64,000 nucleotides of DNA from Candidatus Margulisiibacteriota bacterium (lineage in GTDB: Bacteria; Margulisbacteria; WOR-1; O2-12-FULL-45-9): the NCBI GenBank assembly GCA_041658745.1, contig JBAZZP010000003.1, positions 83,423 through 147,422 of the forward strand, read 5' to 3'. The translations under genes and the position numbers were made by a program. Of this stretch, positions 22,805-51,282 are shown in pieces. Numbering within the stretch: position 1 is the first letter of the stretch; each line of letters opens with the position of its first letter. Below the pieces are notes generated by a model. It was not told the DNA's origin and did no database searches. It saw only the letters and a list, made by a program, of their open reading frames with translations.

Positions 22805-23269
22805 TTAAAAAGGTATTTCGTCAATTTCTTTACTCTCGTCCCCTTCAATGGCCATTACGGGCCCTTTCTTCCCTTCCTCTCCCTCATGGGCCTTCACGGG
22901 CCCTTTGTCCCCCTCTTCTCTTTTTCCCAACATTTGGATATTATCCGCGATAACTTCGACCATGCTTCTTTTTTCGCCATCTCGTCCCACAAAATTACTG
23001 ACCTGCAGCCGGCCTTCTACCGCCACCGGTCGGCCTTTTTTAAGGTATTCGCCCACAATTTCGGCGGTTCTTCTCCATGCAACAATATTTATAAAATCCA
23101 CATCCTGGTTGGCAGATGAAGAATCATGCCCCGTAGCTTCTTGGGATTCTTCCTTGCGTTTAAACCGGTTTACCGCAACCGTAAAACGACAGACAGGAAT
23201 CCCCGAAGTGGTATAGCGAAGCTCCGGATCCCTCGTTAAATTCCCAATTATAAAAACTTTATTATACAT
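22805..23269 (-). CDS. ssb: single-stranded DNA-binding protein (paralogue 2, with internal 13-aa tandem duplication)
   Basis: OB fold MYNKVFIIGNLTRDPELRYT..CRFTVAVNR..FINIVAWR, with the acidic tip DEIPF. Confidence 0.85.
   Translation of the reverse strand: MYNKVFIIGNLTRDPELRYTTSGIPVCRFTVAVNRFKRKEESQEATGHDSSSANQDVDFINIVAWRRTAEIVGEYLKKGRPVAVEGRLQVSNFVGRDGEKRSMVEVIADNIQMLGKREEGDKGPVKAHEGEEGKKGPVMAIEGDESKEIDEIPF
22841..22918. repeat. 2 x 39-nt tandem duplication inside ssb paralogue 2
   Basis: It encodes EEGDKGPVKAHEG / EEGKKGPVMAIEG. An exact 14-mer, ccctcatgggcctt (22881-22894), recurs intergenically at 23298-23311. Confidence 0.7.
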
Positions 23270-23314: not shown

Positions 23315-23737
23315 CTAAAAAGGCAAATCGTTATCTAAGTCAGCGTCATCCACCACATCTTCGGCGGCAGCAACACTGGCAAGCGTCGGTTTAGCAGCGT
23401 GTTGGTGATCAGCTCCCAGCAAAAAAACATCTTTCGCTACGACTTCAGTTACCCATTTCCGTTTCCCGCCTTGGTCATCAAAAGAGCGGACCTGAATTCG
23501 TCCTTCAACTAAGACCATTTGGCCGGATTTTAATTTTGCACTGCCTTCGGCAACATTGCGCCAGGCAATAATATCAATTAAATCAGAACCAGATTGGATC
23601 GGCGTTGGTTGTCCTAAAGAAGCCCGCCTCTCAACCAGCAATTTAAATTTGGTCATGGCCAAACCGTCCATCGTAGCACGCGCCTCGGCATCTGTAGCCA
23701 GTTTACCTGACAAAATAATACGGTTTAAACTAGCCAA
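23315..23737 (-). CDS. ssb: single-stranded DNA-binding protein (paralogue 1)
   Basis: OB fold NRIILSGKLATDAE..DIIAWRNVAE..VEGRIQVRSF, with the acidic tip DNDLPF. Confidence 0.85.
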   Translation of the reverse strand: MASLNRIILSGKLATDAEARATMDGLAMTKFKLLVERRASLGQPTPIQSGSDLIDIIAWRNVAEGSAKLKSGQMVLVEGRIQVRSFDDQGGKRKWVTEVVAKDVFLLGADHQHAAKPTLASVAAAEDVVDDADLDNDLPF

Positions 23738-25292: not shown

Positions 25293-26597
25293 CTATGTCT
25301 GGCGAATCCCAGCACCCCAACGTGCAAGTGTCGCCGTCAGGCAGACATCTAGATTAGTATTACGGATCTCTCCCAAGCCTCTTCCTTGTAGACGGTTGGC
25401 AACACAACCCCCTTGGCATATTTCTATGACATCACAGGGTTGGCAAATGGATGACGGGTATTGCAAATGGTCTTCGATGACCCGGTTTTTAAAAATCTGC
25501 CCAGTTTTCGGGTCCCCCAAAATTAAGCCATCGGTTTTTTCTCCCACTAAGGCTAGACAAAAAACAAACTTTTCTTCTGGCAGGAGAAGGGTGTAAGACT
25601 GCGGAGAATCAAGCATAGGACAAGGTCGGCGCGAAGTAAGATAGGCATTATCCTCAAGTCCTAATTGATAGCGCCAGATCCCTTTGGAATAATAATTTGG
25701 TCCAATGGTCCCCATACTAAGCAGGATCTGCAACTTTTCCTTTGGCCAATTTTTCCGAGCTTCAATCACGGACAACAAAAAGCGATCCATGGCGTCTTCC
25801 GTGAGAGGGGAAACGCCCCCTTTAGCGTTTCCAAGCGGCCGCGTTAAACGCAAAACCACTGTTTCAACTCCCAACTCAACAGCCTCCCGCGCAACTTCTT
25901 GAATTCCTTCTAAATAATCCAAATAAACCTGACTAAATATTCCCACCGAAAATGGTCGCGGATTATGGCTGCGCGAAAACTCAACCATTTCCCCAATATT
26001 TGAAGAGACAGCAGCATGGCTGTTTCTCCCATAAGCTATTTGGTGAAGGGCAGCCGGCAGATGACTAATGCGTAAATGGCGAACCGAAGATTGAGCCAAA
26101 GCCTGCAAATTTTGCTGGGTCAGTCTTCTTTCCCCATTGGTAATGGCATAGGGATCCCCTGCCAAAGTTTTAAGACGCAGCACCTGTTCCAACAGGCGAT
26201 CATTTACATTTAATTCTTTTGGATAGGCGGTAGTTAGAAAGCCTTCAGCTTGCGCGGCACGGATTCTTGCTGAGATTAAATCTTCATCAATAACTGGGCT
26301 CTCTGGTCCTTCGGGTGTCCAAAAACAAAACTCACAGCGGCGATTGCAGGGAGTATTAAGTAGTAGATCGGCCATTGGCTTTACTGGACGCTGCAACAAC
26401 CGCTCTCCATAGCGCTTAATATTCGGCATATTTGTCGCCGCTCGTGCCCGTTGACTGGCCGAGAGGCCAAGGTAAGGAGCAATCAAAGAATACTCCGCCG
26501 GCCCCAAGGTTTTTCCAGCCACAACAATGTTTCCCGATTTACGTGGTAGTAAATGAACAACCATATTATTTTTTCTCCCAACCATTAAACTCGTCAT
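25293..26597 (-). CDS. radical SAM enzyme with C-terminal SPASM-like Cys cluster and ~70-aa N-terminal extension
   Basis: CNRRCEFC (Cx3Cx2C) lies at about residue 84. The C-terminus has CPMLD.., FCLAL.. and CQPCDVIEICQGGCVANR (CxxCx5Cx3C). Confidence 0.75.
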   Translation of the reverse strand: MTSLMVGRKNNMVVHLLPRKSGNIVVAGKTLGPAEYSLIAPYLGLSASQRARAATNMPNIKRYGERLLQRPVKPMADLLLNTPCNRRCEFCFWTPEGPESPVIDEDLISARIRAAQAEGFLTTAYPKELNVNDRLLEQVLRLKTLAGDPYAITNGERRLTQQNLQALAQSSVRHLRISHLPAALHQIAYGRNSHAAVSSNIGEMVEFSRSHNPRPFSVGIFSQVYLDYLEGIQEVAREAVELGVETVVLRLTRPLGNAKGGVSPLTEDAMDRFLLSVIEARKNWPKEKLQILLSMGTIGPNYYSKGIWRYQLGLEDNAYLTSRRPCPMLDSPQSYTLLLPEEKFVFCLALVGEKTDGLILGDPKTGQIFKNRVIEDHLQYPSSICQPCDVIEICQGGCVANRLQGRGLGEIRNTNLDVCLTATLARWGAGIRQT

Positions 26598-26604
26598 CTA
26601 GTCT

Positions 26605-26631
26605 ATCTGAGTAAATAAAAAATAATTTCAC
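26605..26631 (-). promoter_or_regulatory. ECF-sigma-like promoter box GTGAAAT-N16-AGAT, 7 nt before the radical-SAM ATG
   Basis: The coding strand reads AGTGAAAT-tattttttatttactc-AGAT-agactag-ATG. There is no SD. Confidence 0.55.
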
Positions 26632-26661
26632 TAAATAAATTAGGCAAAAGAAAAAATATTC

Positions 26662-26687
26662 TGAAATTATCCTAACTTCCTCTCGAG
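26662..26687 (+). promoter_or_regulatory. near-match to the same promoter box (TGAAAT-N16-CGAG), 8 nt before the MBL ATG
   Basis: Reads cTGAAAT-tatcctaacttcctct-CGAG-attaagtt-ATG. There is no SD. Confidence 0.35.
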
Positions 26688-26695
26688 ATTAAGTT

Positions 26696-27646
26696 ATGAT
26701 TTCGCGCATATCAAAACATGCAGCAAAACCTACACATCAAAAAAATGCTGCTCCAATGCGACCAGGCTTCGCTAAGCTCGAGAAGGTCGGCACCTTTCAA
26801 GAGTGGTTCGAGGTTTACAGGCTCACGCCGGATACATATGCAATTTATGAACCGTATCAATTCCAGGAAGCGATCTGCTATCTTGCTCTGGGCACATCGA
26901 AGGCACTGCTCATAGACACCGGTAACGGCATTGGCAACATTCGAGATGTTGCCTCCACATTAACAGGTTTGCCCATCTCAGTTGTCCTAACTCACGAGCA
27001 CGCGGATCACTACGGCGGCGCGCATTTATTTGAGCACGTTGCCGTTTACAATTTTCAGGCAGCGCTTAAGGAGCTGCGACAAGGGGTTCCGAACGCATCC
27101 GCATGCTGCTCCATCACTGGGAATAACTTATGGGGACCGCTTCCTAATGGGGTTGATCCCGCGACTTGGTCTGTGCTGCCGGTCAATCCCGATTTGCTGC
27201 TCGAAGAGGGCTCAATAGTTGATTTGGGTGGCCGTCAGCTTGAAGTGATCCACACGCCAGGGCACTCGGCTTCCGAAATCTGCCTGCTGGATAACAGCCG
27301 CCGTCTATTGTTCTCGGGAGATCATTTTTACCCCGGTCCGTTGTATTTACAATCGGCAACGGCCGACATCCTCAGCATCTTCGTGGAATCGAACAATAAA
27401 TTAGTACAACGTGTTAATGAGTACGACCATGTGCTTGGCGGTCATAACGAGCCGTGGATCGACGCCGCCGTAATTCCCCGTGTTAGCCAAGCGATGGCGA
27501 TTGTTCTCTGTGGTGGTGGCGCTTTTTCTGAAGATCAGGGAATCAGACGTTATTTCTTCGACGGGTTCGATATCCTGCTTCGCGCTGCGAGCATCAAGAG
27601 TTACATGGTAAAACATCTGCCTGTTAGTGAAAAAAAGATGGATTGA
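26696..27646 (+). CDS. MBL-fold metallo-hydrolase
   Basis: Motifs THEHADHYGG (HxHxDH), HTPGHS and FSGDH. Spot counts suggest it is GC-richer than most of the window. Confidence 0.8.
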   Translation: MISRISKHAAKPTHQKNAAPMRPGFAKLEKVGTFQEWFEVYRLTPDTYAIYEPYQFQEAICYLALGTSKALLIDTGNGIGNIRDVASTLTGLPISVVLTHEHADHYGGAHLFEHVAVYNFQAALKELRQGVPNASACCSITGNNLWGPLPNGVDPATWSVLPVNPDLLLEEGSIVDLGGRQLEVIHTPGHSASEICLLDNSRRLLFSGDHFYPGPLYLQSATADILSIFVESNNKLVQRVNEYDHVLGGHNEPWIDAAVIPRVSQAMAIVLCGGGAFSEDQGIRRYFFDGFDILLRAASIKSYMVKHLPVSEKKMD

Positions 27647-27692
27647 TCTAGCTTAATCCTGGGAAAGAAATAAATCTGGAATTTTAAATCGC

Positions 27693-27719
27693 GTGAAATT
27701 TATTAGAAATATAGAAGAA
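27693..27719 (+). promoter_or_regulatory. near-match promoter box GTGAAAT-N16-AGAA upstream of the FGE-like gene
   Basis: The 13-mer gtgaaatttatta is identical to 28806-28818. It is followed by a 44-nt leader with a TAGGAG SD. Confidence 0.3.
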
Positions 27720-27763
27720 AACAAAGTGAAAGATACAACGCAGAATACTTAGGAGATTAGAAC

Positions 27764-28804
27764 ATGGTTAAAACCTCTGTTGCAGGAAATGTTGGCGGGG
27801 ACAGTTTGGTTAGAGCCCTGCTATGTTCTCAAGCTTCTATAAGAGGGGACCAAAAAAGAAGCCGAAGTTGTGGCATAAGGATATTTTCACAATACTTAGG
27901 GAGAAACTCCGCAAGACAAGAGGCATGGGTGAAAAACACCCCCCTTTCACCGGAAGTGGTTTTTGCTCGTGCTAGTTTAGATAGTGCTTGGCTAAAACAA
28001 GCTGGGCAATGGCTGGAAACCTCAACTGACCCAAAACAACGGGCGGCCATGTTAAAAAGACTTGGGGCTGAAAAGCTTGAACCAGAAAATCTTTACCCCC
28101 TTCCCGAAATTGAGTTACCCATGGTGCCCCACATTCCAACAGGGCCATTCACGATGGGCAGTCAGCAATTTGATGACGCTAAACCTTTGAGAGAAATAAT
28201 CCTTGATCCTTTTAGTATAAGTATTTTCCCAGTAACCAGAGCCCAATATTTGATAGGAATGCAGCAAGCAGGTTTAATCACACCGGAATATTGGAAGCAA
28301 ACAGACGGAGAATTGATTTGCCCTTCCCATCCGGTTACCGGTGTAACTTGGGAACAGGCCAACGCGTTTGCAGAGTGGCTTGGCCGAAGATTACCTACCG
28401 AAGCTGAATGGGAATTCTCCGCTAGAGGTTATGATGAAAAACTCTATCCATGGGGAAACATATTTGATCCTTCACGGGCGGCCTTTCACCAACGGGGAAC
28501 CAGCCCCGTTGATGCCTACCCAACCGGTGTATCTTGGAATGGGATTTTTGGACTAGCTGGTAATATTTGTGAGTGGTGCGCTGATTGGTATGCTTCATAT
28601 GACCCGTCCGCATTACACAACCCTCGCGGCCCAGAAGAAGGAAGCATGCGAGTTTTACGTGGTGGGTCACATTTCTATGATGAGCCCGAATTATTGCGTA
28701 GTGATCGTCGCAACAAGCATTATCCAAGCATCGTCGGCAATAGTTATGGTTTTCGCGTAGCGGAAGGGGGCATTGTTCCCCCAAATGGCTTAGTTAAAAA
28801 ATAG
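27764..28804 (+). CDS. FGE-sulfatase domain protein (SUMF1/EgtB/PvdO family) with ~115-aa N-terminal extension
   Basis: Motifs GPFTMGS, HPVTGVTWEQANAFAEWLGRRLPTEAEWEFSARG, GNICEWCADWY and RVLRGGSHF. Confidence 0.8.
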   Translation: MVKTSVAGNVGGDSLVRALLCSQASIRGDQKRSRSCGIRIFSQYLGRNSARQEAWVKNTPLSPEVVFARASLDSAWLKQAGQWLETSTDPKQRAAMLKRLGAEKLEPENLYPLPEIELPMVPHIPTGPFTMGSQQFDDAKPLREIILDPFSISIFPVTRAQYLIGMQQAGLITPEYWKQTDGELICPSHPVTGVTWEQANAFAEWLGRRLPTEAEWEFSARGYDEKLYPWGNIFDPSRAAFHQRGTSPVDAYPTGVSWNGIFGLAGNICEWCADWYASYDPSALHNPRGPEEGSMRVLRGGSHFYDEPELLRSDRRNKHYPSIVGNSYGFRVAEGGIVPPNGLVKK

Positions 28805-28840: not shown

Positions 28841-30463
28841 ATGAACAAAGTAACGACTCAAGGCACTGCCGCTCAAATCAGGCAGCTATCAGCATTAACT
28901 GCCCGGCTGGTAAAAACGGGGAGCATTAGTCCCTCTCAAGGAGAAAATAGGGTCGCTAAACTAATTGTTAGAACCATGCAACGCGGAGGATTTTCTATCG
29001 CTGATCCGCTAACAAGCGATGTCCTTCTATCCGCCAGCACCGGCTTAATTCCACTGCCCGACGGAAGGGCAAATGCCTTTGCCTTCCTGCCCGCCTTAGA
29101 AAGAACCGATAAAACATTATTACTATTTGGCCACATGGATACTGTTGGGATAGATGATTTTGGCCAGCTAAAAGGTGTGGCAAACGATCCCGTAAAATTA
29201 AGAAAGGCTCTCATAGAAGAAGGAAGCGAAGCTGAGGCCATTAAGGACTTACTAACTGGGAACTGGATGTGCGGACGTGGGTCATTGGATATGAAGAGCG
29301 GTCTCGCCATTGAAATGACAACCTTAATTAATCTTCGCAGTAATCCTTCCAATGGGAATATTCTTTTTATGGGAATGCCCGACGAAGAAAACGATTCGGC
29401 CGGTATGCTGGGCGCTGTCCCATTTTTAAAACATTTTGCCGAATTACACCAGCTCAACCTAATGGGAGCCATTAATGCCGACTATACTACCGAAAGATTT
29501 CCAGGAGATAGCAACCGCTATTTGTATTTGGGAACAGTTGGTAAACTTTTACCAACTTTTTTAGTCATTGGCAGTACAACCCACGTGGGAGAGATTTTTA
29601 ACGGGATCAACCCTTCATTAATCCTTGCCCAGCTAGCTGCTCAAATGGAAACTAATCCGGCCTTTTGCGATACAATGGAAGGAGAAACGACCCTTCCCCC
29701 CACTGCATTAAAGTTTTCCGACCTAAAAGCAGGTTATAATGTGCAAACTCCGCTCTCTGCCTGGGCATATTTTAATTTATTCACCCATTCAATGACTCCG
29801 GAAAACGCCATGCAGCATATTTTGTCTATCGCTCGGGAAGCAGCACATAGGTCCCAACAAATATTGCGGGCAAGAACCAGGGATTTTAATGTGCGGACTG
29901 GCAGCAACCATCCCGATACCCAAATTAACATTTCTGTTTTGCCTTTTGACGAATTAGCTACTGGGCTTACAATTGATTCTTCGGCTGCTGCAATAGCTAC
30001 CGATCCACGGGATAAAAGCCGACTAATTGTTGAAGATTTATGGAGAAGGTCGGGAAGATCGCTTGGTAGACATGAGGCGGTGATTATCCCATTTTTGTCT
30101 CCACCTTACTATCCACATGGACATGTTTCGAAGGAAGAATCGGCCGCTTCCTCTTTTATTTCAGCAGCAACAGCTAGTGCAAAACGGGCCGGATTAGCCG
30201 TCAGGAAATTTTATCCGTATATTTCGGATGCCAGCTTTCTGCGGGCGCCCATGACCGGAGCAGACATGACCAGTCTATTGCCTTTATGGGAAAAGGGCTA
30301 TCGTCTTCCCATCGAAGACATTCGTGCATTAAATTTACCCGTAATTAATTTAGGACCTTGGGGAAAGGGGGCGCATCAGAGAATCGAAAGAATTGAAACC
30401 AGTTATTCTTTTGGAAGGCTTCCACAAATTATGGAAGATGTTATCCGTAATACCTTTAGATAA
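28841..30463 (+). CDS. M20-family metallopeptidase/amidohydrolase, RocB-like (long form)
   Basis: 540 aa. Motifs LLLFGHMDTVGIDDFG, GRGSLDMKSG and MPDEENDSAGM. The size and N-terminal block resemble the arginine-utilisation protein RocB. Confidence 0.7.
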   Translation: MNKVTTQGTAAQIRQLSALTARLVKTGSISPSQGENRVAKLIVRTMQRGGFSIADPLTSDVLLSASTGLIPLPDGRANAFAFLPALERTDKTLLLFGHMDTVGIDDFGQLKGVANDPVKLRKALIEEGSEAEAIKDLLTGNWMCGRGSLDMKSGLAIEMTTLINLRSNPSNGNILFMGMPDEENDSAGMLGAVPFLKHFAELHQLNLMGAINADYTTERFPGDSNRYLYLGTVGKLLPTFLVIGSTTHVGEIFNGINPSLILAQLAAQMETNPAFCDTMEGETTLPPTALKFSDLKAGYNVQTPLSAWAYFNLFTHSMTPENAMQHILSIAREAAHRSQQILRARTRDFNVRTGSNHPDTQINISVLPFDELATGLTIDSSAAAIATDPRDKSRLIVEDLWRRSGRSLGRHEAVIIPFLSPPYYPHGHVSKEESAASSFISAATASAKRAGLAVRKFYPYISDASFLRAPMTGADMTSLLPLWEKGYRLPIEDIRALNLPVINLGPWGKGAHQRIERIETSYSFGRLPQIMEDVIRNTFR

Positions 30464-30484: not shown

Positions 30485-31171
30485 ATGGCAGTATTAAGTA
30501 TTGGTTCAATCCACGTGCAAAAATTATACAGAGGAATGAGGACTCCTGAAAGCACAATGAAAATTGGGGGGGAACGCTTGGCCCACATCCTAGGGGTTAG
30601 GCCGGGAACAGCTTCTTTCGGGAGAATTGCTTTCGGCAATCAAGAATTAGATCTCAGGGAAATAGTAAACTTGGCTGCTCCTGCCGACATAGCCGTAAAT
30701 GGCAGGGAAGAGATTGACGCGGCAAAAGCACAAGCAATTTTAGCTGCTAGAGTAACTGGCAACTGGGAAACGGCCAATGGATTGCTTGGAACTAATTTGC
30801 ACGCAAGCCGCACGATAAGAAGATCGCTAGCTTATACTCTTTTGGAAGAAGGAGTAGCAGCCTTTAACCGTTTAAGAGAATCCTTAAGTGAAGCAACTGT
30901 TAATCTGCGCGGCGTCGAAATGCCCGAGATTGACCTTTCTGGCGCTACCCTTTCTGGTGCAGAATTAGCGTTTGCCAATTTGTCTAGGACACGTTTCTCG
31001 AGTAAGACCAGATTAGACGGTGCAGATTTAACCGGCGCAAACCTAGCTGGGGCAGATCTATCAAATGCAGATTTGTCAACGGCGCTTGTTGCAGAGGCGA
31101 CCTATTCTAGCGCTACTCGATTTCCAGCAAATTTCGATCCTGCAAATCTTGGAATGATAAAAATAGGATAA
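30485..31171 (+). CDS. pentapeptide-repeat protein (repeats only in the C-terminal ~80 aa)
   Basis: LSGATLSGAELAFANLSRTRFSSKTRLDGADLTGANLAGADLSNADLS. AAGGAGG SD lies upstream. Confidence 0.8.
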   Translation: MAVLSIGSIHVQKLYRGMRTPESTMKIGGERLAHILGVRPGTASFGRIAFGNQELDLREIVNLAAPADIAVNGREEIDAAKAQAILAARVTGNWETANGLLGTNLHASRTIRRSLAYTLLEEGVAAFNRLRESLSEATVNLRGVEMPEIDLSGATLSGAELAFANLSRTRFSSKTRLDGADLTGANLAGADLSNADLSTALVAEATYSSATRFPANFDPANLGMIKIG

Positions 31172-31187
31172 TAAAGGAGGAAATAAT

Positions 31188-32447
31188 ATGACAACTTTAA
31201 TCGGGACAGCGCTTAGGAATTATTCTCATCTCAAAATGGACACAATTAGAGCCTCAATTCAAGAATCAGTTGGCTCATTAAGGTCAAGATTGAGAGAAAG
31301 ACATCGAGGGACATTGGTTCAACAGGCAACAGAGGTTGCCAGAAAGGGGGCAGCTCTCAGCATTTATTGCCCAATCAACGTAGCACTTGCCCACACCGCC
31401 GCACCAAGATTGGAAGCGGTCGCTAAACCGGACTCACAGTCAAGGATTTTGTCCAGAAGGCCAATGACAATTGTAACTGTTAACTCCGGTTTTTGTGCCG
31501 GAAAATCTACCGATCCCAACCTGCAAACCCCCAACATGGTTGTAAGCAGATTGCGGGAAATGCTTTTAACTTTAGGCGACCAATGGAAATCCATTGGTAA
31601 AAATTTAAAATGGGTGCATGCCCCTACCGTATTTTACCCAAGCAAACCGATTGAATTAGCAAGGGTGGATGATCGCAATCCCAATTCGTTTAAGTATATA
31701 CGAGAAGCTGTTCTAAATTACTACTTTTCTTATTCAACAACTATTAATGGGGTGCTAGAGAGAGGATTTTCTCCATTACTCGTCGGAGGAGATCATTCTT
31801 TGGCTTTTGCGAGCGTCTCTACCGTAAGCAACCACTATTTTAGAAAAACTGGAAAAACCGCCGGATTGGTTTGGGTTGATGCCCATGGAGATATAAACAC
31901 TAGAGCTACTTCGCCGTCAGGAAATTTCCATGGCGGACCAGTTGCTGCCCTGCTTGGGATATCCAACACAGTTATGGATCTTTTCATGGAAAAACCATTA
32001 AACCCCAGAAACATCGTATATATTGCCATTAGAGATTTGGATCCAGGAGAAATTGCAACTATTGCCCGTCTTGGCATAAAAGTTTTTAGCGCCAAGGACA
32101 TTGAAAAAGATGGATTGGAATCGGTAATGCAACAAGCCAGAGCCATTGCCGGCCAAGGAACCTCTGGTATTTGTGTTTCATTTGATATTGATGGAGTTGA
32201 AGGAACCCATGTCCCCGGAACAGGAACTCCGGTTAGTGTTGGAGAAAATATGGACAAGAGGGGCCTTACTCCTCAAGAAGCCAAAGATATGGCAACCATT
32301 TTCGGGAGCTGGAGGAACCTTATTTCTTTTGACATGGTAGAAGTAAATCCCGAAATTGATCAAAAACCGGGGTTTCCAACAGTCCAACTCGCCAGTGAAA
32401 TTCTTACAAACTTTATTGTCAGCCGTAACGACACTTCCATAACATAG
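31188..32447 (+). CDS. arginase/agmatinase/formiminoglutamase-family ureohydrolase with ~90-aa N-terminal extension
   Basis: Motifs VGGDHSLA, VWVDAHGDINT and SFDIDGVEGTHVPGTGTP, so the metal ligands are intact. AAGGAGG SD lies upstream. Confidence 0.8.
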   Translation: MTTLIGTALRNYSHLKMDTIRASIQESVGSLRSRLRERHRGTLVQQATEVARKGAALSIYCPINVALAHTAAPRLEAVAKPDSQSRILSRRPMTIVTVNSGFCAGKSTDPNLQTPNMVVSRLREMLLTLGDQWKSIGKNLKWVHAPTVFYPSKPIELARVDDRNPNSFKYIREAVLNYYFSYSTTINGVLERGFSPLLVGGDHSLAFASVSTVSNHYFRKTGKTAGLVWVDAHGDINTRATSPSGNFHGGPVAALLGISNTVMDLFMEKPLNPRNIVYIAIRDLDPGEIATIARLGIKVFSAKDIEKDGLESVMQQARAIAGQGTSGICVSFDIDGVEGTHVPGTGTPVSVGENMDKRGLTPQEAKDMATIFGSWRNLISFDMVEVNPEIDQKPGFPTVQLASEILTNFIVSRNDTSIT

Positions 32448-32484: not shown

Positions 32485-34344
32485 ATGGCAATCGATAGAG
32501 AAATGGGCCTGCAGAGATTAAGATTTATTCTGCCCGGAAGGCATACACAGCCGATGCTGGCAACCCATCCTGCTCCAAGGACGGAAGGAGTTCCAACCAT
32601 TGCCGGCTTAGGCAGTCCTTTGCGGATTGCTACCCGTCCCCCTCTCTTTAAACCTTTATTGCAGAGAGAGTTTTTTGCAGCTTTAGCCACAGCTTTCCCT
32701 GCCTACCAATTAACCCCTGAAGTAGAAAAACAGCTAGGAGTTACTTATCCAAAACTAGCCGATCATGGCGATTATGCTATCCCCGTTTTTGCTCTGTCCA
32801 AAGCGATAAGACAAGCTCCTGCAACTATCGCCGAAAAAATTGCCTCCGAAATGCGCGCCAATCCGGACATTAACCGTTATTTCGATATTAATGTGATTAA
32901 TGGTTATATTAATTTCCGCTTTAGTGATGCTTTTTTGATGGCCTCTGCCACTTCCCTAGATTCAACTTTTGGGAATAACGATACTTTGGCGGGACAAACC
33001 ATTCAGGTTGAATGGGTCTCGGCTAATCCAACCGGACCGTTACACATTGGCCATGCTCGCTGGGCGGTGATGGGAGATTTACTTTGCAAAATGCTCGAAG
33101 CCTGTGGCGCAACTGTGCAACGCGAATTTTATGTTAATGACGCCGGCGCCCAGATTGAGCGCTTTAGGAAATCCGTCCAAGCCGCCAAAGAAGGAAGCGC
33201 CATCCCGGAAGATGGCTATCATGGACAATATATCTATGAAATTGCCAAACAAGGGGGAGACCCTGTTTTGCTTATGATGGAATATCAACGTCTTTCACTG
33301 GAAGCCATCGGTGTCCATTTTGATCGTTGGTTTTCGGAAAAAACCCTCTACATTCCCGATGCAGAAGGCAGAACGATGGTAGATAAGGGCTTAGCCATTT
33401 TAGAAGCTGCCCACTTAACCTACCGCGCCGCCGAAGGAGAACAGGTTGACGAAGAAATAAACGCTCCCGTAAACAGAAAAGGACAAGCCCAAACCGGAGA
33501 AGCCTTATGGTTTCGTTCTACCCAATTTGGTGACACTAAGGACAGAGTACTCATCAAGGCAAATGGCGCTGCAACCTACTTTTTAGGAGACATTGCTTAT
33601 CACTTAGATAAAGTTGGGCGTGGCTTTGATTTCTTGTTCAATATTTTAGGGGCCGACCACGGCGGTTATGTCGCCCGTCTTTCAGCTGCGATCCAGGCTT
33701 TATCTGACGGAAAACAAGGCCACCACATAATCATTGGCCAATTAGTTAAATTACTAAAGGAAGACCCCGATTCACACCAACTAGTAGAGGCCCGCATGTC
33801 AAAACGCACCGGCGAAATGGTCTCTTTGGGAGATATAACCGAAGCTATTGGGGCAGATGCGGTACGCGTTTTTATGGGGAGCGCCGGATTTGATACCGCC
33901 GTAAATATCAATTTGGATGTTGCTACCAAAAAGTCTTCTGATAATCCAGTATTTTACATCCAGTACGCCCACGCCCGCATTGCCCAGTTATTAAAAAAAG
34001 CACAGGAACAAGGCATCACTCCAGCCACAACCATTCCTGCCGATTATAGACTAAATACCGAAGAGAGAGCGCTATTAGCAGCTATCTACAAAATACCGGA
34101 TGAAATATTAGAGGCTGCTGATGCTCAGGCCACCCAGAGGATCCTTCAATTTACGATGGATCTGGCAACCCGCTTCCATGCTTTTTATCATGCGCACCAT
34201 ATTGTTAACGAACATGATTTGCCTACCAGCCAAGCAAGATTGGCTCTCTGCCAGGCAACTGCGCAAGTTCTTAAAAACGTTTTTGCTCTTATGGGGATTT
34301 CTGCACCAGAAGAAATGGCAGCCAGAGAAGAAGCACCAGTTTAA
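32485..34344 (+). CDS. argS: arginyl-tRNA synthetase with ~55-aa N-terminal extension
   Basis: Motifs SANPTGPLHIGHAR (HIGH) and MSKRTG (KMSK-like), plus the DALR anticodon-binding region. The ATG at 32485 has a strong AAGGGGGA SD. The track start at 32455 is also possible. Confidence 0.88.
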   Translation: MAIDREMGLQRLRFILPGRHTQPMLATHPAPRTEGVPTIAGLGSPLRIATRPPLFKPLLQREFFAALATAFPAYQLTPEVEKQLGVTYPKLADHGDYAIPVFALSKAIRQAPATIAEKIASEMRANPDINRYFDINVINGYINFRFSDAFLMASATSLDSTFGNNDTLAGQTIQVEWVSANPTGPLHIGHARWAVMGDLLCKMLEACGATVQREFYVNDAGAQIERFRKSVQAAKEGSAIPEDGYHGQYIYEIAKQGGDPVLLMMEYQRLSLEAIGVHFDRWFSEKTLYIPDAEGRTMVDKGLAILEAAHLTYRAAEGEQVDEEINAPVNRKGQAQTGEALWFRSTQFGDTKDRVLIKANGAATYFLGDIAYHLDKVGRGFDFLFNILGADHGGYVARLSAAIQALSDGKQGHHIIIGQLVKLLKEDPDSHQLVEARMSKRTGEMVSLGDITEAIGADAVRVFMGSAGFDTAVNINLDVATKKSSDNPVFYIQYAHARIAQLLKKAQEQGITPATTIPADYRLNTEERALLAAIYKIPDEILEAADAQATQRILQFTMDLATRFHAFYHAHHIVNEHDLPTSQARLALCQATAQVLKNVFALMGISAPEEMAAREEAPV

Positions 34345-39766: not shown

Positions 39767-40615
39767 ATGCGCACAATCAAAGACCCAAAAGAAATGTTTG
39801 CTTTTTCCCAGCGAGCCAAAAACCATGGCAAGACAATTGGCTTTGTGCCAACTATGGGTTCCTTACACGAAGGGCATCTTTCCTTGGTTGCCGAAGCCAA
39901 AAAGAGAGCGGATCTTGTAGTTGTTAGCATCTTTGTTAATCCATTACAGTTTTCGCAAAATGAGGACTTCAAACAATACCCCCGCAACCAAAAACATGAT
40001 AGCAAATTACTGGACAATTTCGCCGTAGACGCCCTTTTTATTCCTGAAGCGTCCAAAATGTATGCGGACAAGTTTACCACCACCGTGGACGTTGGCGATC
40101 TCGGCAAGAAAATGTGCGGCAAATCGCGCCCCCATCACTTCAAGGGCGTAGCCACAATTGTTACCAAACTATTTAATATAGTATGCCCCAATTTTGTTTT
40201 CTTTGGTGAAAAAGACTACCAACAATTTATTATCATAAAACAATTAGTTCAAGACCTAAATCTGCCGATAGAGGTTATTGGCCTGCCAATTGTGCGTGAT
40301 TTCGATGGGCTAGCTCTTTCCTCCCGCAATAAAAATTTAAATGATAAAGAAAGAAAATCGGCAACCATAATTAGCAAGGCCCTTTCCACTGCCCGCGCTG
40401 AGATAGAGGCCGGGGAAAGAGACCCCAACAAAATCCTCTTCCGCATGCGCTCCCTGATTGGCAGTGAACCGGTAGTGCGAATCGATTATATTACGATTGC
40501 TAATCCTATTACCTTAGAAGAAACCAAAACCATAAAAGGCAAATTATTGATAGCGATTGCCGCCCATGTTGGCAACACTCGCTTGATAGACAATATTCAG
40601 CTCTATATAAAATGA
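39767..40615 (+). CDS. panC: pantoate--beta-alanine ligase
   Basis: Motifs GFVPTMGSLHEGHLSLV, VSIFVNPLQF and GEKDYQQ. Confidence 0.92.
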   Translation: MRTIKDPKEMFAFSQRAKNHGKTIGFVPTMGSLHEGHLSLVAEAKKRADLVVVSIFVNPLQFSQNEDFKQYPRNQKHDSKLLDNFAVDALFIPEASKMYADKFTTTVDVGDLGKKMCGKSRPHHFKGVATIVTKLFNIVCPNFVFFGEKDYQQFIIIKQLVQDLNLPIEVIGLPIVRDFDGLALSSRNKNLNDKERKSATIISKALSTARAEIEAGERDPNKILFRMRSLIGSEPVVRIDYITIANPITLEETKTIKGKLLIAIAAHVGNTRLIDNIQLYIK

Positions 40616-40992
40616 CCTCCTCTGCGAAAAAAGGGTTCAGTTTATTAGAGTGCTTAATTGTTGTTGGAATTTTGGGGATTCTCCTTACAATTAGCCTTCC
40701 GACCTTAAAGCAATATCGCGAATCGGTTATTCTGAATGCCTCTGCAATAGCCTTAGCCAGCGACCTTCGAGCGCTGCAAAACCAGGCAATGTTAAACCAT
40801 GGAATTGCCAGGCTTTCTTTGTCAGCTTTAAAGCCCCCTGCTCCAATAAAGATTTTATCTTTCTCATCCATTGCATTTTCTCCGTCCGGACTTCCCATCG
40901 TTGGCGGCAGCGGGACAATTGTATTGGGTAGCTCAGCCAGCATAAGCAAAAAGATAATTGTTTCTTCCCTGGGGAGGATCCGCATTGAATAA
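40612..40992 (+). CDS. prepilin-type N-terminal cleavage/methylation domain protein (GspH/FimT-like pseudopilin)
   Basis: KKGFSLLECLIVVGILGILL. Its ATG overlaps the panC stop (ATGA). Confidence 0.75.
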   Translation: MTSSAKKGFSLLECLIVVGILGILLTISLPTLKQYRESVILNASAIALASDLRALQNQAMLNHGIARLSLSALKPPAPIKILSFSSIAFSPSGLPIVGGSGTIVLGSSASISKKIIVSSLGRIRIE

Positions 40993-41329
40993 CCAAAAAG
41001 GCTTTACTCTAATTGAGATGTTAACTGCTTTTGCCCTGCTTATTTGTATCAGCATGGGTCTCAACTATTTACTAAAAAGCGGCAAATGCGCCATTTCATC
41101 TGCCACGAAACAGCGTCAGGCAATATATGCCGCTCAATCAAAGATGGAAGAAATAAGAGCTGTCCCCTTTTCTAGTTTGGCAGCATTCAACAAAAATTCT
41201 TTTGCCGATGGAAAGGGGAGAATTAGCATTAATTCAGTTGCTTCAAATCTTATGCTAATAACCCTTGAAATGCAGTGGTCAGCCAATAAAAGACCCCTGC
41301 GATTAACTACCTTAAGGAGCAATTTGTGA
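40985..41329 (+). CDS. prepilin-type pseudopilin
   Basis: A TTG start at 40985 gives (M)NNQKGFTLIEMLTAFALLI and overlaps the previous stop. Confidence 0.7.
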   Translation: MNNQKGFTLIEMLTAFALLICISMGLNYLLKSGKCAISSATKQRQAIYAAQSKMEEIRAVPFSSLAAFNKNSFADGKGRISINSVASNLMLITLEMQWSANKRPLRLTTLRSNL

Positions 41330-41754
41330 TGCGCAAAGGCTTTAGCTTGGTAGAAATGATTATCGCCCTTAGTCTTTTTGCGTGCTTATTTTGCAGTTTA
41401 TATTATTTTACTGGCCAATCTATCCGTTTTTGGCAACGAGCGGCAGATAATTGCTCCCACCAGCAGACCGAAAACTTTGTTTTGGAGCAAATCATAACAG
41501 CAGTCCGCCAATCCGATCAAATTATGCCAACTTCAAGCACCTCGACATTAATTCTTTCCAGCGAAGGGGAAAACCTGCAATATTCATTAACAAACCACAA
41601 AGTCCAACGCAAAAAAAACGGATCCATTGGTTATCTGACGGATGAAAATGAAATTAACCAATTGTCGTTTGCCTATCCTTCCGCCAAGCGAGTTCAAATT
41701 TCCCTTGAAACAGTTTCAGCAGAAGCATATATGAGAAATGGCAATGAAAACTAA
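41326..41754 (+). CDS. prepilin-type pseudopilin
   Basis: MMRKGFSLVEMIIALSLFACLF. AAGGAG SD lies at 41314-41319. Confidence 0.7.
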   Translation: MMRKGFSLVEMIIALSLFACLFCSLYYFTGQSIRFWQRAADNCSHQQTENFVLEQIITAVRQSDQIMPTSSTSTLILSSEGENLQYSLTNHKVQRKKNGSIGYLTDENEINQLSFAYPSAKRVQISLETVSAEAYMRNGNEN

Positions 41755-47631: not shown

Positions 47632-48486
47632 TTATACCAGCTTCAAATTTATATCCAGTGCCTTAGAGGAATGCGTTAGCTCGCCAATCGAAATAAAATC
47701 CACGCCAGTAGCGGCAATTTTCGCAACTGTTTTTAAATTTACTCCGCCAGACGCTTCGGTTTTTATCCCAGCCTCTTTGCATAATTTAACCGCTTGCCTT
47801 AGAGTTTTAATCTCCATATTATCTAAAAGTATCCTCCCAGCCCCCACTTCAATTGCTTCTTTGACTTCCCCTATTGTCTTTGCTTCAATTTCCGCCCTAA
47901 GCCCTCTCCATCTTCCCTTGCCCTTCCTTGCCTTTCCTTGCCCCTCAACTGCTTCAATCGCTTCTTTCACGCCTCCCGCCAAAGCAATGTGATTATCTTT
48001 AATTAACACAGCATCGTAAAGCCCCATCCGATGGTTAGTTCCGCCACCACACTTGACCGCGTACTTTTCCAAGGAACGTAATCCTGGGATCGTTTTTCGA
48101 GTATCTAGCACTTTGACCATCGACAATGGACCCTGGACTTTTGCAACGAATTTTGCCGTCAGCGTAGAAACCCCAGAAAGATGTTGCAGAAAATTTAACG
48201 CTACGCGCTCGCCCGTTAGTATCCCGCGAGCTGGCCCAGACAGTTCAGCTAAAATTGTCCCCGCCTTAACTAATTGGCCATCTCGGCATTTTGGAATAAA
48301 TTTAATTCTACAATCGATCTGCCGAAAAACCTCACGGGCAATGTCTATCCCCGCAATAACTCCGGCTTCTTTAGCGCGAATAACCGCTTTGGCAATTTTA
48401 TCTCTTGCCACAATCGCATTGGTCGTGATATCTCCCGTGCCAACGTCTTCTTTTAGCGCCGCTTTAATTATTTCAATATAACCCAT
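47632..48486 (-). CDS. nadC: nicotinate-nucleotide pyrophosphorylase (carboxylating)
   Basis: Motifs DVGTGDITT, LDTRKTIPGLR, GGG.NHR.GLYDAVLIKDNH and LLDNM. Confidence 0.9.
   Translation of the reverse strand: MGYIEIIKAALKEDVGTGDITTNAIVARDKIAKAVIRAKEAGVIAGIDIAREVFRQIDCRIKFIPKCRDGQLVKAGTILAELSGPARGILTGERVALNFLQHLSGVSTLTAKFVAKVQGPLSMVKVLDTRKTIPGLRSLEKYAVKCGGGTNHRMGLYDAVLIKDNHIALAGGVKEAIEAVEGQGKARKGKGRWRGLRAEIEAKTIGEVKEAIEVGAGRILLDNMEIKTLRQAVKLCKEAGIKTEASGGVNLKTVAKIAATGVDFISIGELTHSSKALDINLKLV
47901..47946. repeat. decamer array GCCYTTCCTT (about 4.5 units) inside nadC
   Basis: Reads gccctctcca tcttccctt gcccttcctt gcctttcctt gcccctc. It encodes ..EGQGKARKGKGRWRG.. and belongs to the same family as 1021-1056. 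Confidence 0.75.
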
Positions 48487-49274
48487 ACTAGATAATAGTA
48501 GACGATCGGTGCAGCCAAAATAAAGCTGTCCATCCGATCCAACATCCCTCCGTGTCCTGGAACTAATTGGGAAGAATCCTTAACTCCAGCATCCCGCTTA
48601 ATTAAAGACTCCACCAAATCACTGAACTGGGCCACGATGCCAATAATTGCCCCTAAGATCAAAGAATGTACCATTTCAAACCCAGCGTAATAACCAAACA
48701 CTCCTGCCGCAATAATACAAAAAACAAAACCGGCAGCGGCCCCCTCAATGCTTTTCTTAGGAGAAACCGAAGGCCAAAGCTTATGTCGGCCAAACTTTTT
48801 TCCCACAAAATAGGCAATGGTATCTAGCGCCCAAATCGTTACCATCATAAACAATAAATAACCACCACGTTCGGTTAGCGCTCGAATGTATAAAAAATAA
48901 CTAAAAAACCACCCAATATAAATCATGCCTAGCAAAGTTACCGCAATATCGACAATTGCTTCCTTGGGTCGTTGTTTTAAAAAGAGAGTGGCAATCATCG
49001 TTGCCAAAGCTGCTCCCGTAAAAATGGCCGATTGAGCAGGTTCCCAGTTTTTCTTTAGAGCAAGATATGCGAAAACAATAAAAAAGATGGTAAAAAAATT
49101 ACCCACCCAATAGGCCGGGTGAAAATCTTTATTGCGCATCATATTGTAAAATTCATTGATAGCAATAATGGCTAGAAAAAGCACCATGGCCAAAAAGGGA
49201 ATCCCGCCCCAATAGACACACAAGACCAAAAGAGGGACAGAGATTAAAGCCGTAATAATTCTAAGCCACATCAC
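48468..49274 (-). CDS. cdsA: phosphatidate cytidylyltransferase
   Basis: 268 aa, multi-TM, with C-terminal motif SLIKRDAGVKDSSQLVPGHGGMLDRMDS. Confidence 0.9.
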   Translation of the reverse strand: MMWLRIITALISVPLLVLCVYWGGIPFLAMVLFLAIIAINEFYNMMRNKDFHPAYWVGNFFTIFFIVFAYLALKKNWEPAQSAIFTGAALATMIATLFLKQRPKEAIVDIAVTLLGMIYIGWFFSYFLYIRALTERGGYLLFMMVTIWALDTIAYFVGKKFGRHKLWPSVSPKKSIEGAAAGFVFCIIAAGVFGYYAGFEMVHSLILGAIIGIVAQFSDLVESLIKRDAGVKDSSQLVPGHGGMLDRMDSFILAAPIVYYYLVWVILK

Positions 49275-49980
49275 TCACCTGCTCTTTAGTTTTACCAAAT
49301 TTGCGTGTACGTTTCTGAAAATCTTCGATGGCAGCAATTAGTTGTTCCCGGCGAAAATCGGGCCAATAAGTAGGAGTCACATAAATTTCGGCATAGGCTA
49401 TTTGCCATAACAGAAAATTGGACACTCGCATCTCATTAGCAGTACGAATCAGCAGGTCAGGGTCAGGCATGTTTTTTGTGTATAGATATTGGGAAATTGT
49501 TTCCTCGTTTATTTCGTCATTTTTTAATTCGTCATTCGTCATTCGTTTACATGCATCTACTAGTTCGGCTCGCCCCCCATAATTAACCATTACATTTAAA
49601 GTGATGCGAGAATTGTTTTTGGTGGTTTCCATTGAGTTCTTCATTCTTTGTTGCAAGGCCAAAGAAAATTGTTCGAGCCGACCTAAGAAGTTAAGCTTAA
49701 CACTATTGGCCATCAAATCATCGATTTCACTATCAATGGTTTGCATAAAAAGATCCATTAAAAAATCAACTTCTTCTTGTGGTCTCCTCCAATTTTCGGT
49801 AGAAAAAGCATAGACGGTTAAATATTTTACGCCAAACTCAGCACAAGCCTTGAGGATTGCTCGAACAGATTCTGCTCCTTCTTTGTGGCCAGCAATGCGC
49901 GGCAGACCCTTTGCCTGCGCCCAACGCCCGTTCCCATCCATGATAATTGCAATGTGTTGAGGAATGTTATTGCGATCCAT
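49261..49980 (-). CDS. uppS: di-trans,poly-cis-undecaprenyl-diphosphate synthase
   Basis: Motifs HIAIIMDGNGRWA, AFSTENW.RP and RVSNFLLWQIAYAE. Confidence 0.92.
   Translation of the reverse strand: MDRNNIPQHIAIIMDGNGRWAQAKGLPRIAGHKEGAESVRAILKACAEFGVKYLTVYAFSTENWRRPQEEVDFLMDLFMQTIDSEIDDLMANSVKLNFLGRLEQFSLALQQRMKNSMETTKNNSRITLNVMVNYGGRAELVDACKRMTNDELKNDEINEETISQYLYTKNMPDPDLLIRTANEMRVSNFLLWQIAYAEIYVTPTYWPDFRREQLIAAIEDFQKRTRKFGKTKEQVSDVA
49513..49548. repeat. heptamer repeats TTCGTCA (1 + 3 tandem) inside uppS
   Basis: Reads ttcgtca(49513-19) .. ttcgtca ttcgtca ttcgttt(49528-48). It encodes KRMTNDELKNDEI. Confidence 0.75.
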
Positions 49981-49995
49981 TTGCCCATCCTAAAA

Positions 49996-50550
49996 CTAAA
50001 CCTCGAGAATTTCTTTTTCCTTAGAATGTAATATTTTGTCAATGTCGGCAGAATATTTGTCGGTTAGTTCCTGGACTTTTTTGTCCTGGGTTTTTTCTTC
50101 ATCCTCGGTGATTTGTTTTTCGTTTTTCTTTTTTTTGAGAGCTTCCACTGCTTCGCGACGAATATTACGCAACGCTACCTTGCTTTCTTCCGATTCCTTT
50201 TTAACCGTTTTTACGAGTTCTTTGCGCCGTTCCTCGGAAGGGGAAGGGAGGGAAAGGCGAATAACGTTAGCATCTCTCCGCGGATTAAGTCCCAAATCAG
50301 ACGACATCAAGGCCCTTTCAATATCGGCAGAAGCATTTTTATCGAACGGGGTGATCACCAAACTGCGTGGCTCTGGAGCGGAAACCTGGGCAATTTGTTT
50401 TAGAGGCACATCCGACCCATAATATGAAACCTTAATGTGATCAAGCAAGGAGGGATTGGCGCGACCAGTCCTAACCCCCGACAGGTTCTTCTTTAATGCT
50501 TCCAGTGCTTTTTGCATTTTAATTTCGCTTTCTTTAATTACATCTTGCAT
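49996..50550 (-). CDS. frr: ribosome recycling factor
   Basis: 184 aa. Motifs VRTGRANPSLLD, LGLNP and EERRKELVK. Confidence 0.93.
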   Translation of the reverse strand: MQDVIKESEIKMQKALEALKKNLSGVRTGRANPSLLDHIKVSYYGSDVPLKQIAQVSAPEPRSLVITPFDKNASADIERALMSSDLGLNPRRDANVIRLSLPSPSEERRKELVKTVKKESEESKVALRNIRREAVEALKKKKNEKQITEDEEKTQDKKVQELTDKYSADIDKILHSKEKEILEV

Positions 50551-50559
50551 AGTTCCCTC

Positions 50560-51282
50560 CTAGTTTTCTTCGCTAACCAAAGTTCCAACGTCTTTACCAA
50601 GAATTGCTTTTTTAATATTCCCGCGCTCGGTTAAATTGAGAACTAAAATGGGGATTTTGTTTTCCATACACAGAGAAGCCGCTGTTGTATCCATAACTTT
50701 TAACCGGCGCTGAATAACTTCCATGTGACTAATATTTTTATACTTTTTGGCATCGGGATATTGCATGGGGTCTTTATCATAAACACCGCCAACTTTAGTG
50801 GCTTTTAGGATAATGTCAACGTCTAATTCGGCAGCTCGCAAGGCCGCAGCTGTGTCAGTTGAGAAATATGGGTTGCCTGTTCCTGCCGCCAGAATAATGA
50901 CGCGACCTTTTTCCATGTGGCGAATCGCCCGCCGCCGAATAAACGGTTCGGCAATTGATTGCATAGGAATCGCGCTTTGCACACGAGAAGGAACCCCAAT
51001 TCGCTCCAAAGCATCTTGCAGGGCCAATGAATTGATGACTGTAGCCAACATTCCCATATAGTCGCCGGTGGCACGATCAATCCCTTTAACAGCCCCCGCC
51101 ACCCCACGAAAAATATTACCCCCACCCACTATGATGGCAATATCTACCCCTAACTTGCGAATTGCTTTTATCTCTTCGGCTACAACGTTTAAGATTTCGA
51201 GGTCAATGCCATATTTTTGTTTGCCGCCGAAGACTTCACCTGAGAGTTTTAAGAGGATACGTTTGTATCTAACCCTAGCCAT
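50560..51282 (-). CDS. pyrH: uridylate kinase
   Basis: Motifs [20 protein letters not shown] and [17 protein letters not shown]. Confidence 0.93.

Follow-up and report, generated by a model that had tools for sequence, protein, structure and literature searches.

Does the gene at positions 31188..32447 (+ strand) of the DNA presented here encode an ordinary arginase, or a ureohydrolase with another substrate? The DNA is a stretch of 64,000 nucleotides from a Candidatus Margulisiibacteriota bacterium (contig JBAZZP010000003.1), and the whole stretch is called the window. The frame of the gene is open over 419 aa, its product carries an N-terminal extension of 92 residues, and argS lies immediately downstream. 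We consider it likely that the gene encodes a divergent, bona fide L-arginine arginase in a Roc-like operon with a citrullinase and argS, and that the extension is a real, fast-evolving and non-catalytic appendage.

The first-pass annotation had called the product an arginase-family enzyme, and this was borne out. The 419-aa product of the open reading frame (ORF) is identical to a database entry titled 'arginase family protein', which comes from a Candidatus Margulisiibacteriota metagenome-assembled genome (MAG). Residues 181-408 matched Pfam Arginase PF00491 with 163.5 bits (E 9.6e-48), above the gathering cutoff of 22. The top NCBIfam model was TIGR01229 (rocF_arginase, 170.2 bits), with the alignment confined to aa 173-408; agmatinase models reached 58-60 bits and HutG 53 bits. 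Since the agmatinase, formimidoylglutamase and guanidino-acid hydrolase models scored far under the arginase model, the protein is not assigned to those families. A PDB sequence search gave arginases as the best matches, from 1cev (E 6.5e-39) down to about 1e-24, and the entries for guanidinobutyrase, agmatinase and proclavaminate amidinohydrolase were found only at E 1e-11 or weaker.

The catalytic core spans aa 93-419 and the stop codon (31464..32447, + strand), as placed by PF00491, 1cev and Foldseek. An AlphaFold2 model was built from an alignment of 121 sequences. The mean predicted local distance difference test (pLDDT) score over 10-residue blocks was 73-98 from residue 171 onward, and lower (47-88) in the N-terminal third of the core and the loop 152-161. 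When the modelled core was compared with the PDB using Foldseek, the best 50 matches were all arginases (50/50), with TM-scores normalised by target of 0.7-0.86. A loop insertion of about 7 residues (SVGENMDK; 32235..32258, + strand) follows GTPV in the alignments. It is found in the lineage of the window and of a second strain, L084, is longer in the relative P0366, and has block-mean pLDDT values of 74-75 in the window model.

Active-site residues were mapped by adding human ARG1 to the 121-sequence alignment. The expected human residue was found at all 16 numbered positions, and the Bacillus caldovelox arginase sequence used agrees with the 1cev alignment. The roles of N130, S137, N139, H141, D181, D183, E186, T246 and E277 are those established in the arginase structural literature.

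All six binuclear-Mn ligands are present in the window protein: H203, D231, H233, D235, D333 and D335 (human H101, D124, H126, D128, D232 and D234). H203 occupies an invariant alignment column in GGDHS (aa 200-204; 31785..31799, + strand). The segment DAHGDINTRATSPSGNFHG (31878..31934, + strand) begins with the DAHGDINT block (aa 231-238) and contains the Mn ligands D231/H233/D235, the alpha-carboxylate binders N237/S244/N246 and the proton shuttle H248. These correspond to human D124/H126/D128/N130/S137/N139/H141, and all are kept in the window protein and its clade. The motif DLDPGE (32034..32051, + strand) holds D283, D285 and E288 (human D181/D183/E186) for alpha-amino recognition. The SFDID block (aa 331-335) with D333 and D335 lies in SFDIDGVEGTHVPGTGTP (32178..32231, + strand), which also carries E338 and G339 in place of the consensus DP, and T347 (human T246). 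The alignment confirms the earlier observation that the metal-ligand blocks GGDHS, DAHGDIN and SFDID are intact.

Free L-arginine is recognised through its alpha-carboxylate and alpha-amino groups by N130, S137, N139, D181, D183 and E186 (human numbering). These six are kept, and H141, T246 and E277 are likewise conserved. This recognition and catalytic set is intact in the window protein, P0121, P0002 and P0003. The motifs of peptide arginases of the OspR family are absent from the window protein. Because the pocket is kept and these motifs are absent, the sequence argues for free L-arginine as the substrate. The protein is most likely a catalytically competent binuclear-Mn L-arginine amidinohydrolase, predicted to be functionally RocF-like.

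RocF of Bacillus caldovelox and B. subtilis (PDB 1cev and 6nfp) is the closest known enzyme. The two share the fold (TM-score by target about 0.84-0.86) and are identical in the Mn ligands, the residues that bind L-arginine, the His of the proton shuttle and the catalytic Glu; relatives of the window arginase also sit in operons that contain rocD and rocB. In contrast, identity to RocF is only about 36-39%, and the window protein differs by its 92-aa basic extension, the INSGFCAG sequence in the N-terminal third, the DP to EG change, the 7-aa insertion and the loss of D204, R255 and E262 (human numbering).

Several observations weigh against a plain RocF-type arginase. The TIGR01229 score does not reach the RocF equivalog cutoff of 227.6 bits (the relatives P0366 and P0003 score 170.3 and 182.9 bits). 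The N-terminal third of the core is strongly divergent, with INSGFCAG where GxPxxLGxxRRGVxxGP is usual. The segment after DxD had been noticed as non-canonical, and rightly so: it reads GVEGTHVPGTGTP, with E and G at the positions of human D237 and P238, where canonical arginases have D in 116/117 and P in 114/117. D204, R255 and E262, which are invariant among the 117 canonical arginases, are replaced in the clade by E/S/R, Q/A/E and T/K/R, respectively, and with these interface changes the kinetics or regulation of the enzyme could differ. As to the surroundings, no ornithine-consuming gene was found among the 61 window ORFs scanned, out of 68 of at least 90 aa, and genes for a pentapeptide-repeat protein, a metallo-beta-lactamase (MBL)-fold protein and a formylglycine-generating enzyme (FGE)-like protein also lie on the arginase strand.

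Some of these features could also point to a substrate other than free L-arginine, and the first-pass annotation had proposed a peptide- or metabolite-specific ureohydrolase. The divergent N-terminal third, the DP to EG change, the insertion after GTPV near the active-site rim and the score under the RocF cutoff fit such a peptide arginase or an enzyme for another guanidino metabolite, as does a radical S-adenosylmethionine (SAM)/SPASM-like ORF 4.6 kb upstream on the opposite strand. The conventional arginase motifs are GGDHS, DAHxD and SxDxDxxDP (PMC10028609). The trailing DP of the last motif is EG in the window and DA or DE in relatives, and it lies outside the six metal ligands. OspR of the landornamide pathway (PDB 8BRP) has the ureohydrolase superfamily, binuclear Mn and arginine-to-ornithine chemistry in common with the window protein. 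OspR-type enzymes have the motifs EEH(N/H)EAF, DxHxD and LDIDLDYFSC and are without the alpha-carboxylate/alpha-amino pocket (PMC10028609), whereas the window protein has GGDHS, DAHGD and SFDID and retains every residue of that pocket. OspR was not among the 63 PDB sequence matches of the window protein. In addition, the matches to agmatinase, HutG, guanidinobutyrase and proclavaminate amidinohydrolase are much weaker, inspection of one stretch (26560-27800) revealed no small ORF resembling a precursor, and relatives are found in operons of the order rocD-rocB-X-argS, where X is the arginase or an equivalent enzyme. A different substrate is therefore quite improbable, and the earlier proposal was not upheld.

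The phylogenetic position of the protein was examined with a neighbour-joining (NJ) tree rooted on E. coli SpeB; no other ureohydrolase occurred in any fetched locus to serve as a natural outgroup. The window protein, L084, P0002, P0003 and L171 formed one clade with a bootstrap of 100/100. The clade fell among the canonical arginases and not outside them, yet on a long branch: the mean distance from clade to canonical arginases was 1.33, versus 0.74 within the canonical arginases. Apart from INSGFCAG, the clade-wide changes include HGGP for HGMP. The first-pass annotation had named tight clustering with RocF arginases and a mis-called start as findings that would refute its proposal. The outcome is mixed, and neither was observed: the protein lies in this long-branch clade below the TIGR01229 cutoff, and the Shine-Dalgarno (SD) sequence and open frame of the extension are conserved.

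The three replaced residues belong to the conserved trimer/hexamer interface, and the window arginase does not have them. D204 and E262 form a salt-bridge site for Arg308 or external arginine at the oligomer interface (PMC7925462). An altered quaternary structure or allostery of the window enzyme is a reasonable inference from these replacements. The loss of the trimer-interface residues is notable in itself.

Relatives of the window arginase were few. A word-indexed search of 5.8 billion clusters returned two. One more, P0366, came from searching 1.84 billion representatives exhaustively by HMMER with a clade-specific 112-aa segment; L171 was added through context look-ups. P0366 had been missed by the first homologue search, and the counts of clade members are lower bounds. 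The clade alignment was also used to scan 185,579 GTDB species genomes; all 80 loci retained were arginases of at most 41% identity, with no close relative, and the source genome was likewise not among these 80. The arginase lineage is thus rare, with about six sequences among billions; it is also fast-evolving and so far found only in the Margulisbacteria-type group.

The first ~90 residues had been described as being without counterpart in ordinary arginases. In agreement with this, the arginase fold starts at about Met93 (MTIVTVNSGFCAG...), and nothing in canonical arginases corresponds to residues 1-92. The extension (codons 1-92; 31188..31463, + strand) is basic, with a net charge of +9 and an isoelectric point of 11.4. 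Its block-mean pLDDT was 34-64 for residues 1-90, and residues 91-100 averaged 83. In the model, helices of low confidence (tentatively 2-11, 17-37 and 42-54) give way to coil. The low pLDDT is no proof of disorder, because just one other sequence covered the extension in the AlphaFold2 alignment.

A mis-called start would make this extension an annotation artefact, with translation beginning from Met93 (ATG 31464). Met93 falls at the first beta-strand of the fold, and the low pLDDT over the extension would fit this. The ratio of nonsynonymous to synonymous substitution (dN/dS, omega) is 0.18 for the core and 0.54 for the extension, where it does not fall significantly under 1 (Fisher p 0.18); the substitutions in the extension are spread evenly over the codon positions (8/11/12). 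However, a consensus SD sequence, AAGGAGG (31174..31180, + strand), is read directly 7 nt before ATG 31188, the stop of the upstream gene being 17 nt before that ATG, and it is kept in L084 as AAGGGAGG. No conserved SD sequence precedes Met93: the weak SD-like AGAAGG of the window (AGAAGGCCAATG) is lost in L084 (AAAAAGCCAATG). The L084 arginase has 92% protein identity and retains the SD sequence, the ATG and the 92-codon open frame without indels, although the DNA of the extension differs by 11%. By chance, the 92 codons (276 nt) would stay open with a probability of about 0.007; 5 and 3 stops occur in the remaining two frames. Moreover, P0366 (404 aa, 51% identical) is itself extended by 76 aa, of which the last ~45 can be aligned with residues 45-92 of the window protein, and a start at Met93 would leave an untranslated gap of 290 nt where the other gaps of the operon are 17-37 nt. 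An artefact is thus very doubtful. The 92-aa extension is real, its start codon is correctly called, and it is weakly constrained, fast-evolving and conserved in part.

The sister subclade carries something else at this end. P0003 (L001:10001-11929), P0002 and L171 (1813-3174) have a conserved ~195-aa N-terminal domain without a Pfam match, which ends in 'LLkGDxxxyNxxR' and is followed by degenerate pentapeptide-like repeats; P0003 additionally has a C-terminal leucine-rich-repeat (LRR) region. Comparison of the window extension with this domain, or with the pentapeptide protein encoded upstream, gave no signal. A Rosetta-stone link, in which the pentapeptide gene would be homologous to the ~195-aa domain, is suggestive only and is not claimed: BLASTP of the pentapeptide protein against the domains of P0002, P0003 and L171 gave E values of at least 1.2, shuffling gave z of 1.1-3.3, and hhalign gave a collinear weak alignment (P 0.02, probability 2%).

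The genes around the arginase support the arginine theme that had been proposed for the operon. The M20 hydrolase gene at 28841..30463 (+ strand; Pfam Peptidase_M20) encodes a protein 33-40% identical, over 83-98% of its length, to RocB-named proteins in NCBI, UniRef and JGI. By this full-length similarity it belongs to the RocB family (COG4187) and is a predicted citrullinase. The first-pass annotation had paired it with the arginase and described the biochemical role of RocB as unclear. The family assignment held, but the two genes are not directly adjacent, as the gene for a 228-aa pentapeptide-repeat protein (30485..31171, + strand; Pfam Pentapeptide E 6e-17) lies between them; and the statement on RocB is outdated, since RocB was shown in 2023 to be a Mn-dependent citrullinase (PMC10404663). 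The pentapeptide gene is a lineage-specific insert, because L084 has it and L172 is without it.

As had been stated, argS (32485..34344, + strand) is immediately downstream. Its longest ORF begins with TTG 32455, and the likely start is ATG 32485, 37 nt past the arginase stop, giving 619 aa; this start and its SD sequence AAGGGGG are conserved in L084. The product (ArgRS) scored 329.3 bits with TIGR00456 against a cutoff of 261.65, has Arg_tRNA_synt_N and DALR_1 domains, and its HIGH and MSKR motifs are invariant across the ArgRS clade alignment, which identifies it as an arginine-tRNA ligase. It has a basic, Pro/Arg-rich N-terminal extension of ~50 aa.

From the M20 gene through the pentapeptide and arginase genes to argS, the gaps are 22, 17 and 37 nt. 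No terminator-like site was found in the three gaps, in scans for promoters and terminators that performed no better on the window than on shuffled sequence, and an Rfam scan of the window found no T-box or other RNA element. The tight spacing and the lack of terminator-like sites in the gaps fit a single transcription unit. The earlier remark that rocD, rocA and ornithine-handling genes are missing also stood, as neither these two nor genes for ornithine cyclodeaminase, ornithine decarboxylase or ornithine transcarbamylase (OTC) were found among the scanned ORFs.

All relatives of the arginase, and the ArgRS relatives of at least 49% identity, sit in arginine-catabolic neighbourhoods. In L172 the order is an ornithine-aminotransferase-like fragment, RocB-like, arginase (P0366) and ArgRS, the last being a 167-aa fragment. 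In L087 it is RocD (TIGR01885, 513 bits; cutoff 378), RocB-like, a guanidino-group hydrolase, ArgRS and an AlaDh_PNT_N-domain protein. The best PDB matches of the L087 hydrolase were N-terminal domains of ArgZ/AgrE (E 1e-14), and its top NCBIfam model was dimethylargininase. L172 and L087 thus share the order rocD-rocB-X-argS, with ArgRS fragments 68% and RocB proteins 53% identical, and X is an arginase in L172 and an unrelated ArgZ-N/DDAH-like guanidino hydrolase in L087. This is a non-orthologous displacement in one operon slot. The presence of two unrelated guanidino hydrolases in the same slot is the strongest contextual support for the arginase performing the arginine-to-ornithine step.

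The cyanobacterial arginine dihydrolase-ornithine cyclodeaminase ArgZ/AgrE (PDB 6juy and 6lrf) is a functional analogue, which produces ornithine by removing the guanidino group from arginine. The ArgZ-N/DDAH-like gene of L087 fills the slot that the arginase fills in L172 and the window, and the C-terminal domain of AgrE is fused to this type of ArgRS in another relative, P0250. The analogue differs from the arginase in its unrelated guanidino-group-modifying fold and Cys nucleophile, and it releases NH3 and CO2, not urea.

In the proposed pathway, the arginase would hydrolyse free L-arginine, yielding L-ornithine and urea. It is most likely co-transcribed with the RocB-type citrullinase, which would convert citrulline to ornithine, and with argS. 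Both hydrolases would then channel guanidino and ureido amino acids into ornithine. The presence of argS in the same unit presumably couples the breakdown of arginine with the capacity for charging tRNA-Arg, for which the Lactococcus arc operon offers a parallel. The extension and the lost trimer-interface residues probably alter oligomerisation or partner binding, not the chemistry.

The linkage with argS extends to all seven lineages of this ArgRS type (window/L084, L172, L087, L001/L002, L003, L171 and L170; at least 49% identity where the gene is full). In 7/7, argS adjoins or is fused with arginine/ornithine catabolic genes. L001/L002 encode a GNAT-ArgRS fusion followed by an arginase carrying the C-terminal LRR, L003 and L171 have ArgRS and then arginase, and L170 has GNAT, an ArgRS fused N-terminally to the AgrE/ArgZ C-terminal domain, and then RocB-like. 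The L170 fusion is P0250 (930 aa, L170:8803-11595), which matched PF21571 and PF21570, and residues 364-699 of PDB 6lrf (E 5e-87); the fused domain is of the ornithine cyclodeaminase type. Gene order is inverted among the lineages and the adjacency of argS is retained. The GNAT (Acetyltransf_3)-ArgRS fusion of L001 (L001:7627-9966, 779 aa) lies directly upstream of the clade arginase, and its GNAT part is 60% identical to the stand-alone GNAT gene in L170.

Two background sets were used, 80 canonical arginase loci from the GTDB scan and 80 other-ArgRS loci from a metagenome scan with the ArgRS clade alignment, which returned just ArgRS of at most 40% identity. Among the canonical arginase loci, argS was directly adjacent in 1/80 (L073) and within 3-7 kb in six more. 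Arginase, RocB or DDAH genes were found within 10 kb in 0/80 of the other-ArgRS loci. The L073 pair (L073:3867-6718), from a Crocinitomicaceae (Bacteroidota) MAG, is independent and outside the clade: a canonical 315-aa arginase with argS 3 nt after it.

These observations raise the question of a physical or functional coupling between the arginase and the ArgRS of its lineage. The two might form a complex that divides arginine between translation and breakdown or senses Arg or tRNA-Arg, in which the basic extension would be a docking or tRNA-binding element. This would be compatible with plain arginase chemistry. The linkage in all seven lineages despite inverted order, the fusions in P0250 and L001, the low background (1/80 and 0/80), the basic N-terminal extensions of both arginase and ArgRS and the loss of canonical trimer-interface residues fit such coupling. 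On the other hand, membership of one operon suffices for the adjacency, for which L073 is one precedent and the arc operon of Lactococcus lactis, which contains argS, is another (PMC5300872, PMC7818446). The seven lineages may also be one phylogenetic group inheriting synteny, the extension is under weak constraint (omega 0.54), and in the other subclade the unrelated ~195-aa N-terminal domain takes its place. We regard coupling as rather unlikely.

A bolder form of the same idea is that ArgRS and the arginine-to-ornithine enzymes are a co-evolving unit, perhaps a complex, in which the arginase would have given up the classical trimer interface and acquired its basic extension to dock on ArgRS or tRNA-Arg, so that the charging status of the tRNA would gate arginine catabolism. 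Its members would possibly be the arginase or the ArgZ-N/DDAH-like hydrolase, RocB and the AgrE-C-type cyclodeaminase domain. We hold this to be unlikely, and prefer a divergent L-arginine arginase that shares its operon with argS. The L. lactis arc operon is the closest parallel for argS embedded in an arginine-catabolic cluster, and it differs in having the arginine deiminase/OTC/carbamate kinase pathway, not arginase and RocB, in belonging to a different phylum, and in lacking ArgRS-catabolic fusions.

If the prediction of an L-arginine arginase holds, the locus would serve routine arginine catabolism, with no new chemistry needed. The gene itself is a divergent variant within the known arginase family, and the linkage and fusions of ArgRS with catabolism are the more interesting side lead. 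A rare sub-lineage with a rewritten N-terminus and a lost interface would be useful for studying what the trimer interface and the allosteric arginine site contribute. The phylum of the Margulisbacteria-type group is sister to the Cyanobacteria, and the exchange of arginase and ArgZ-N/DDAH-like hydrolase is a clean case of non-orthologous displacement in one operon slot. The lineage-wide linkage of an aminoacyl-tRNA synthetase with the catabolism of its own amino acid, once as a protein fusion, deserves note even with the Lactococcus arc operon as a precedent; it is a testable lead on how translation and amino-acid breakdown are balanced.

The region upstream of the rocB-like gene holds an MBL-fold hydrolase gene (26696-27646, + strand) and, just upstream of the rocB-like gene, an FGE-sulfatase gene of the SUMF1/EgtB/PvdO type (27764-28804, + strand). 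L087 and L172 have rocD at this position and are without the MBL and FGE genes. Divergent from the MBL-fold gene is a 434-aa ORF (25293-26597, - strand) with a CxxxCxxC motif (NTPCNRRCEFCF), a weak match to SPASM TIGR04085 (E 5e-5) and no Pfam match; it is the ORF 4.6 kb upstream of the arginase. Horizontal transfer of the 26-34 kb block was considered and rejected, as its slightly raised GC came from codon position 2 and not from position 3.

Aminoacyl-tRNA synthetase and pentapeptide-repeat genes are classic resistance markers of biosynthetic clusters. The region from 25.3 to 34.3 kb, with its radical-SAM/SPASM-like, MBL-fold, FGE-like, M20, pentapeptide-repeat, arginase and ArgRS genes, might thus be a natural-product cluster in which ArgRS and the pentapeptide protein confer self-resistance. 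Both marker types are present, the CxxxCxxC ORF with its weak SPASM match is nearby, and the window ArgRS is only 40-44% identical to typical Margulisbacteria ArgRS (510-530 aa). However, the block and the remainder of the window have equal GC content at third codon positions (0.41 vs 0.40, p 0.68), giving no sign of acquisition, the one stretch checked held no precursor ORF, and the 64-kb window contains no second argS. The conserved core in relatives consists of rocD, rocB, an arginine-to-ornithine enzyme and argS, without the radical-SAM, MBL, FGE or pentapeptide genes. Housekeeping genes make up the flanks (rpsF-ssb-rplI, ychF, mutL, topA, panC, thrS, dxr and pyrH-frr-uppS-cdsA). A natural-product cluster is extremely unlikely, and an arginine-catabolic operon remains our reading of the block.

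RocB-like genes also occurred elsewhere. The pyrH-frr-uppS-cdsA-nadC genes of the window (47632-51282, - strand) are syntenic with L085:11516-15176. In L085 a 53%-identical RocB-like gene adjoins pyrH and is followed by a gene for a 457-aa protein without a Pfam match, with no arginase or argS, which indicates that the location of RocB varies between relatives. A RocB-like M20 gene (44% identity) in L088 (8001-9569) lies next to HAD hydrolases in an archaeal-looking context with PolD and Cdc6/Orc1; this occurrence extends the RocB family beyond the Firmicutes distribution of PMC10404663.

Two further features were observed in the flanks. Tandem single-strand-binding protein genes (22805-23269 and 23315-23737, - strand) lie between rpsF and rplI. 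Three consecutive small genes with prepilin-type N-terminal methylation motifs (pseudopilins) are found downstream of panC at 40612-41754 (+ strand).

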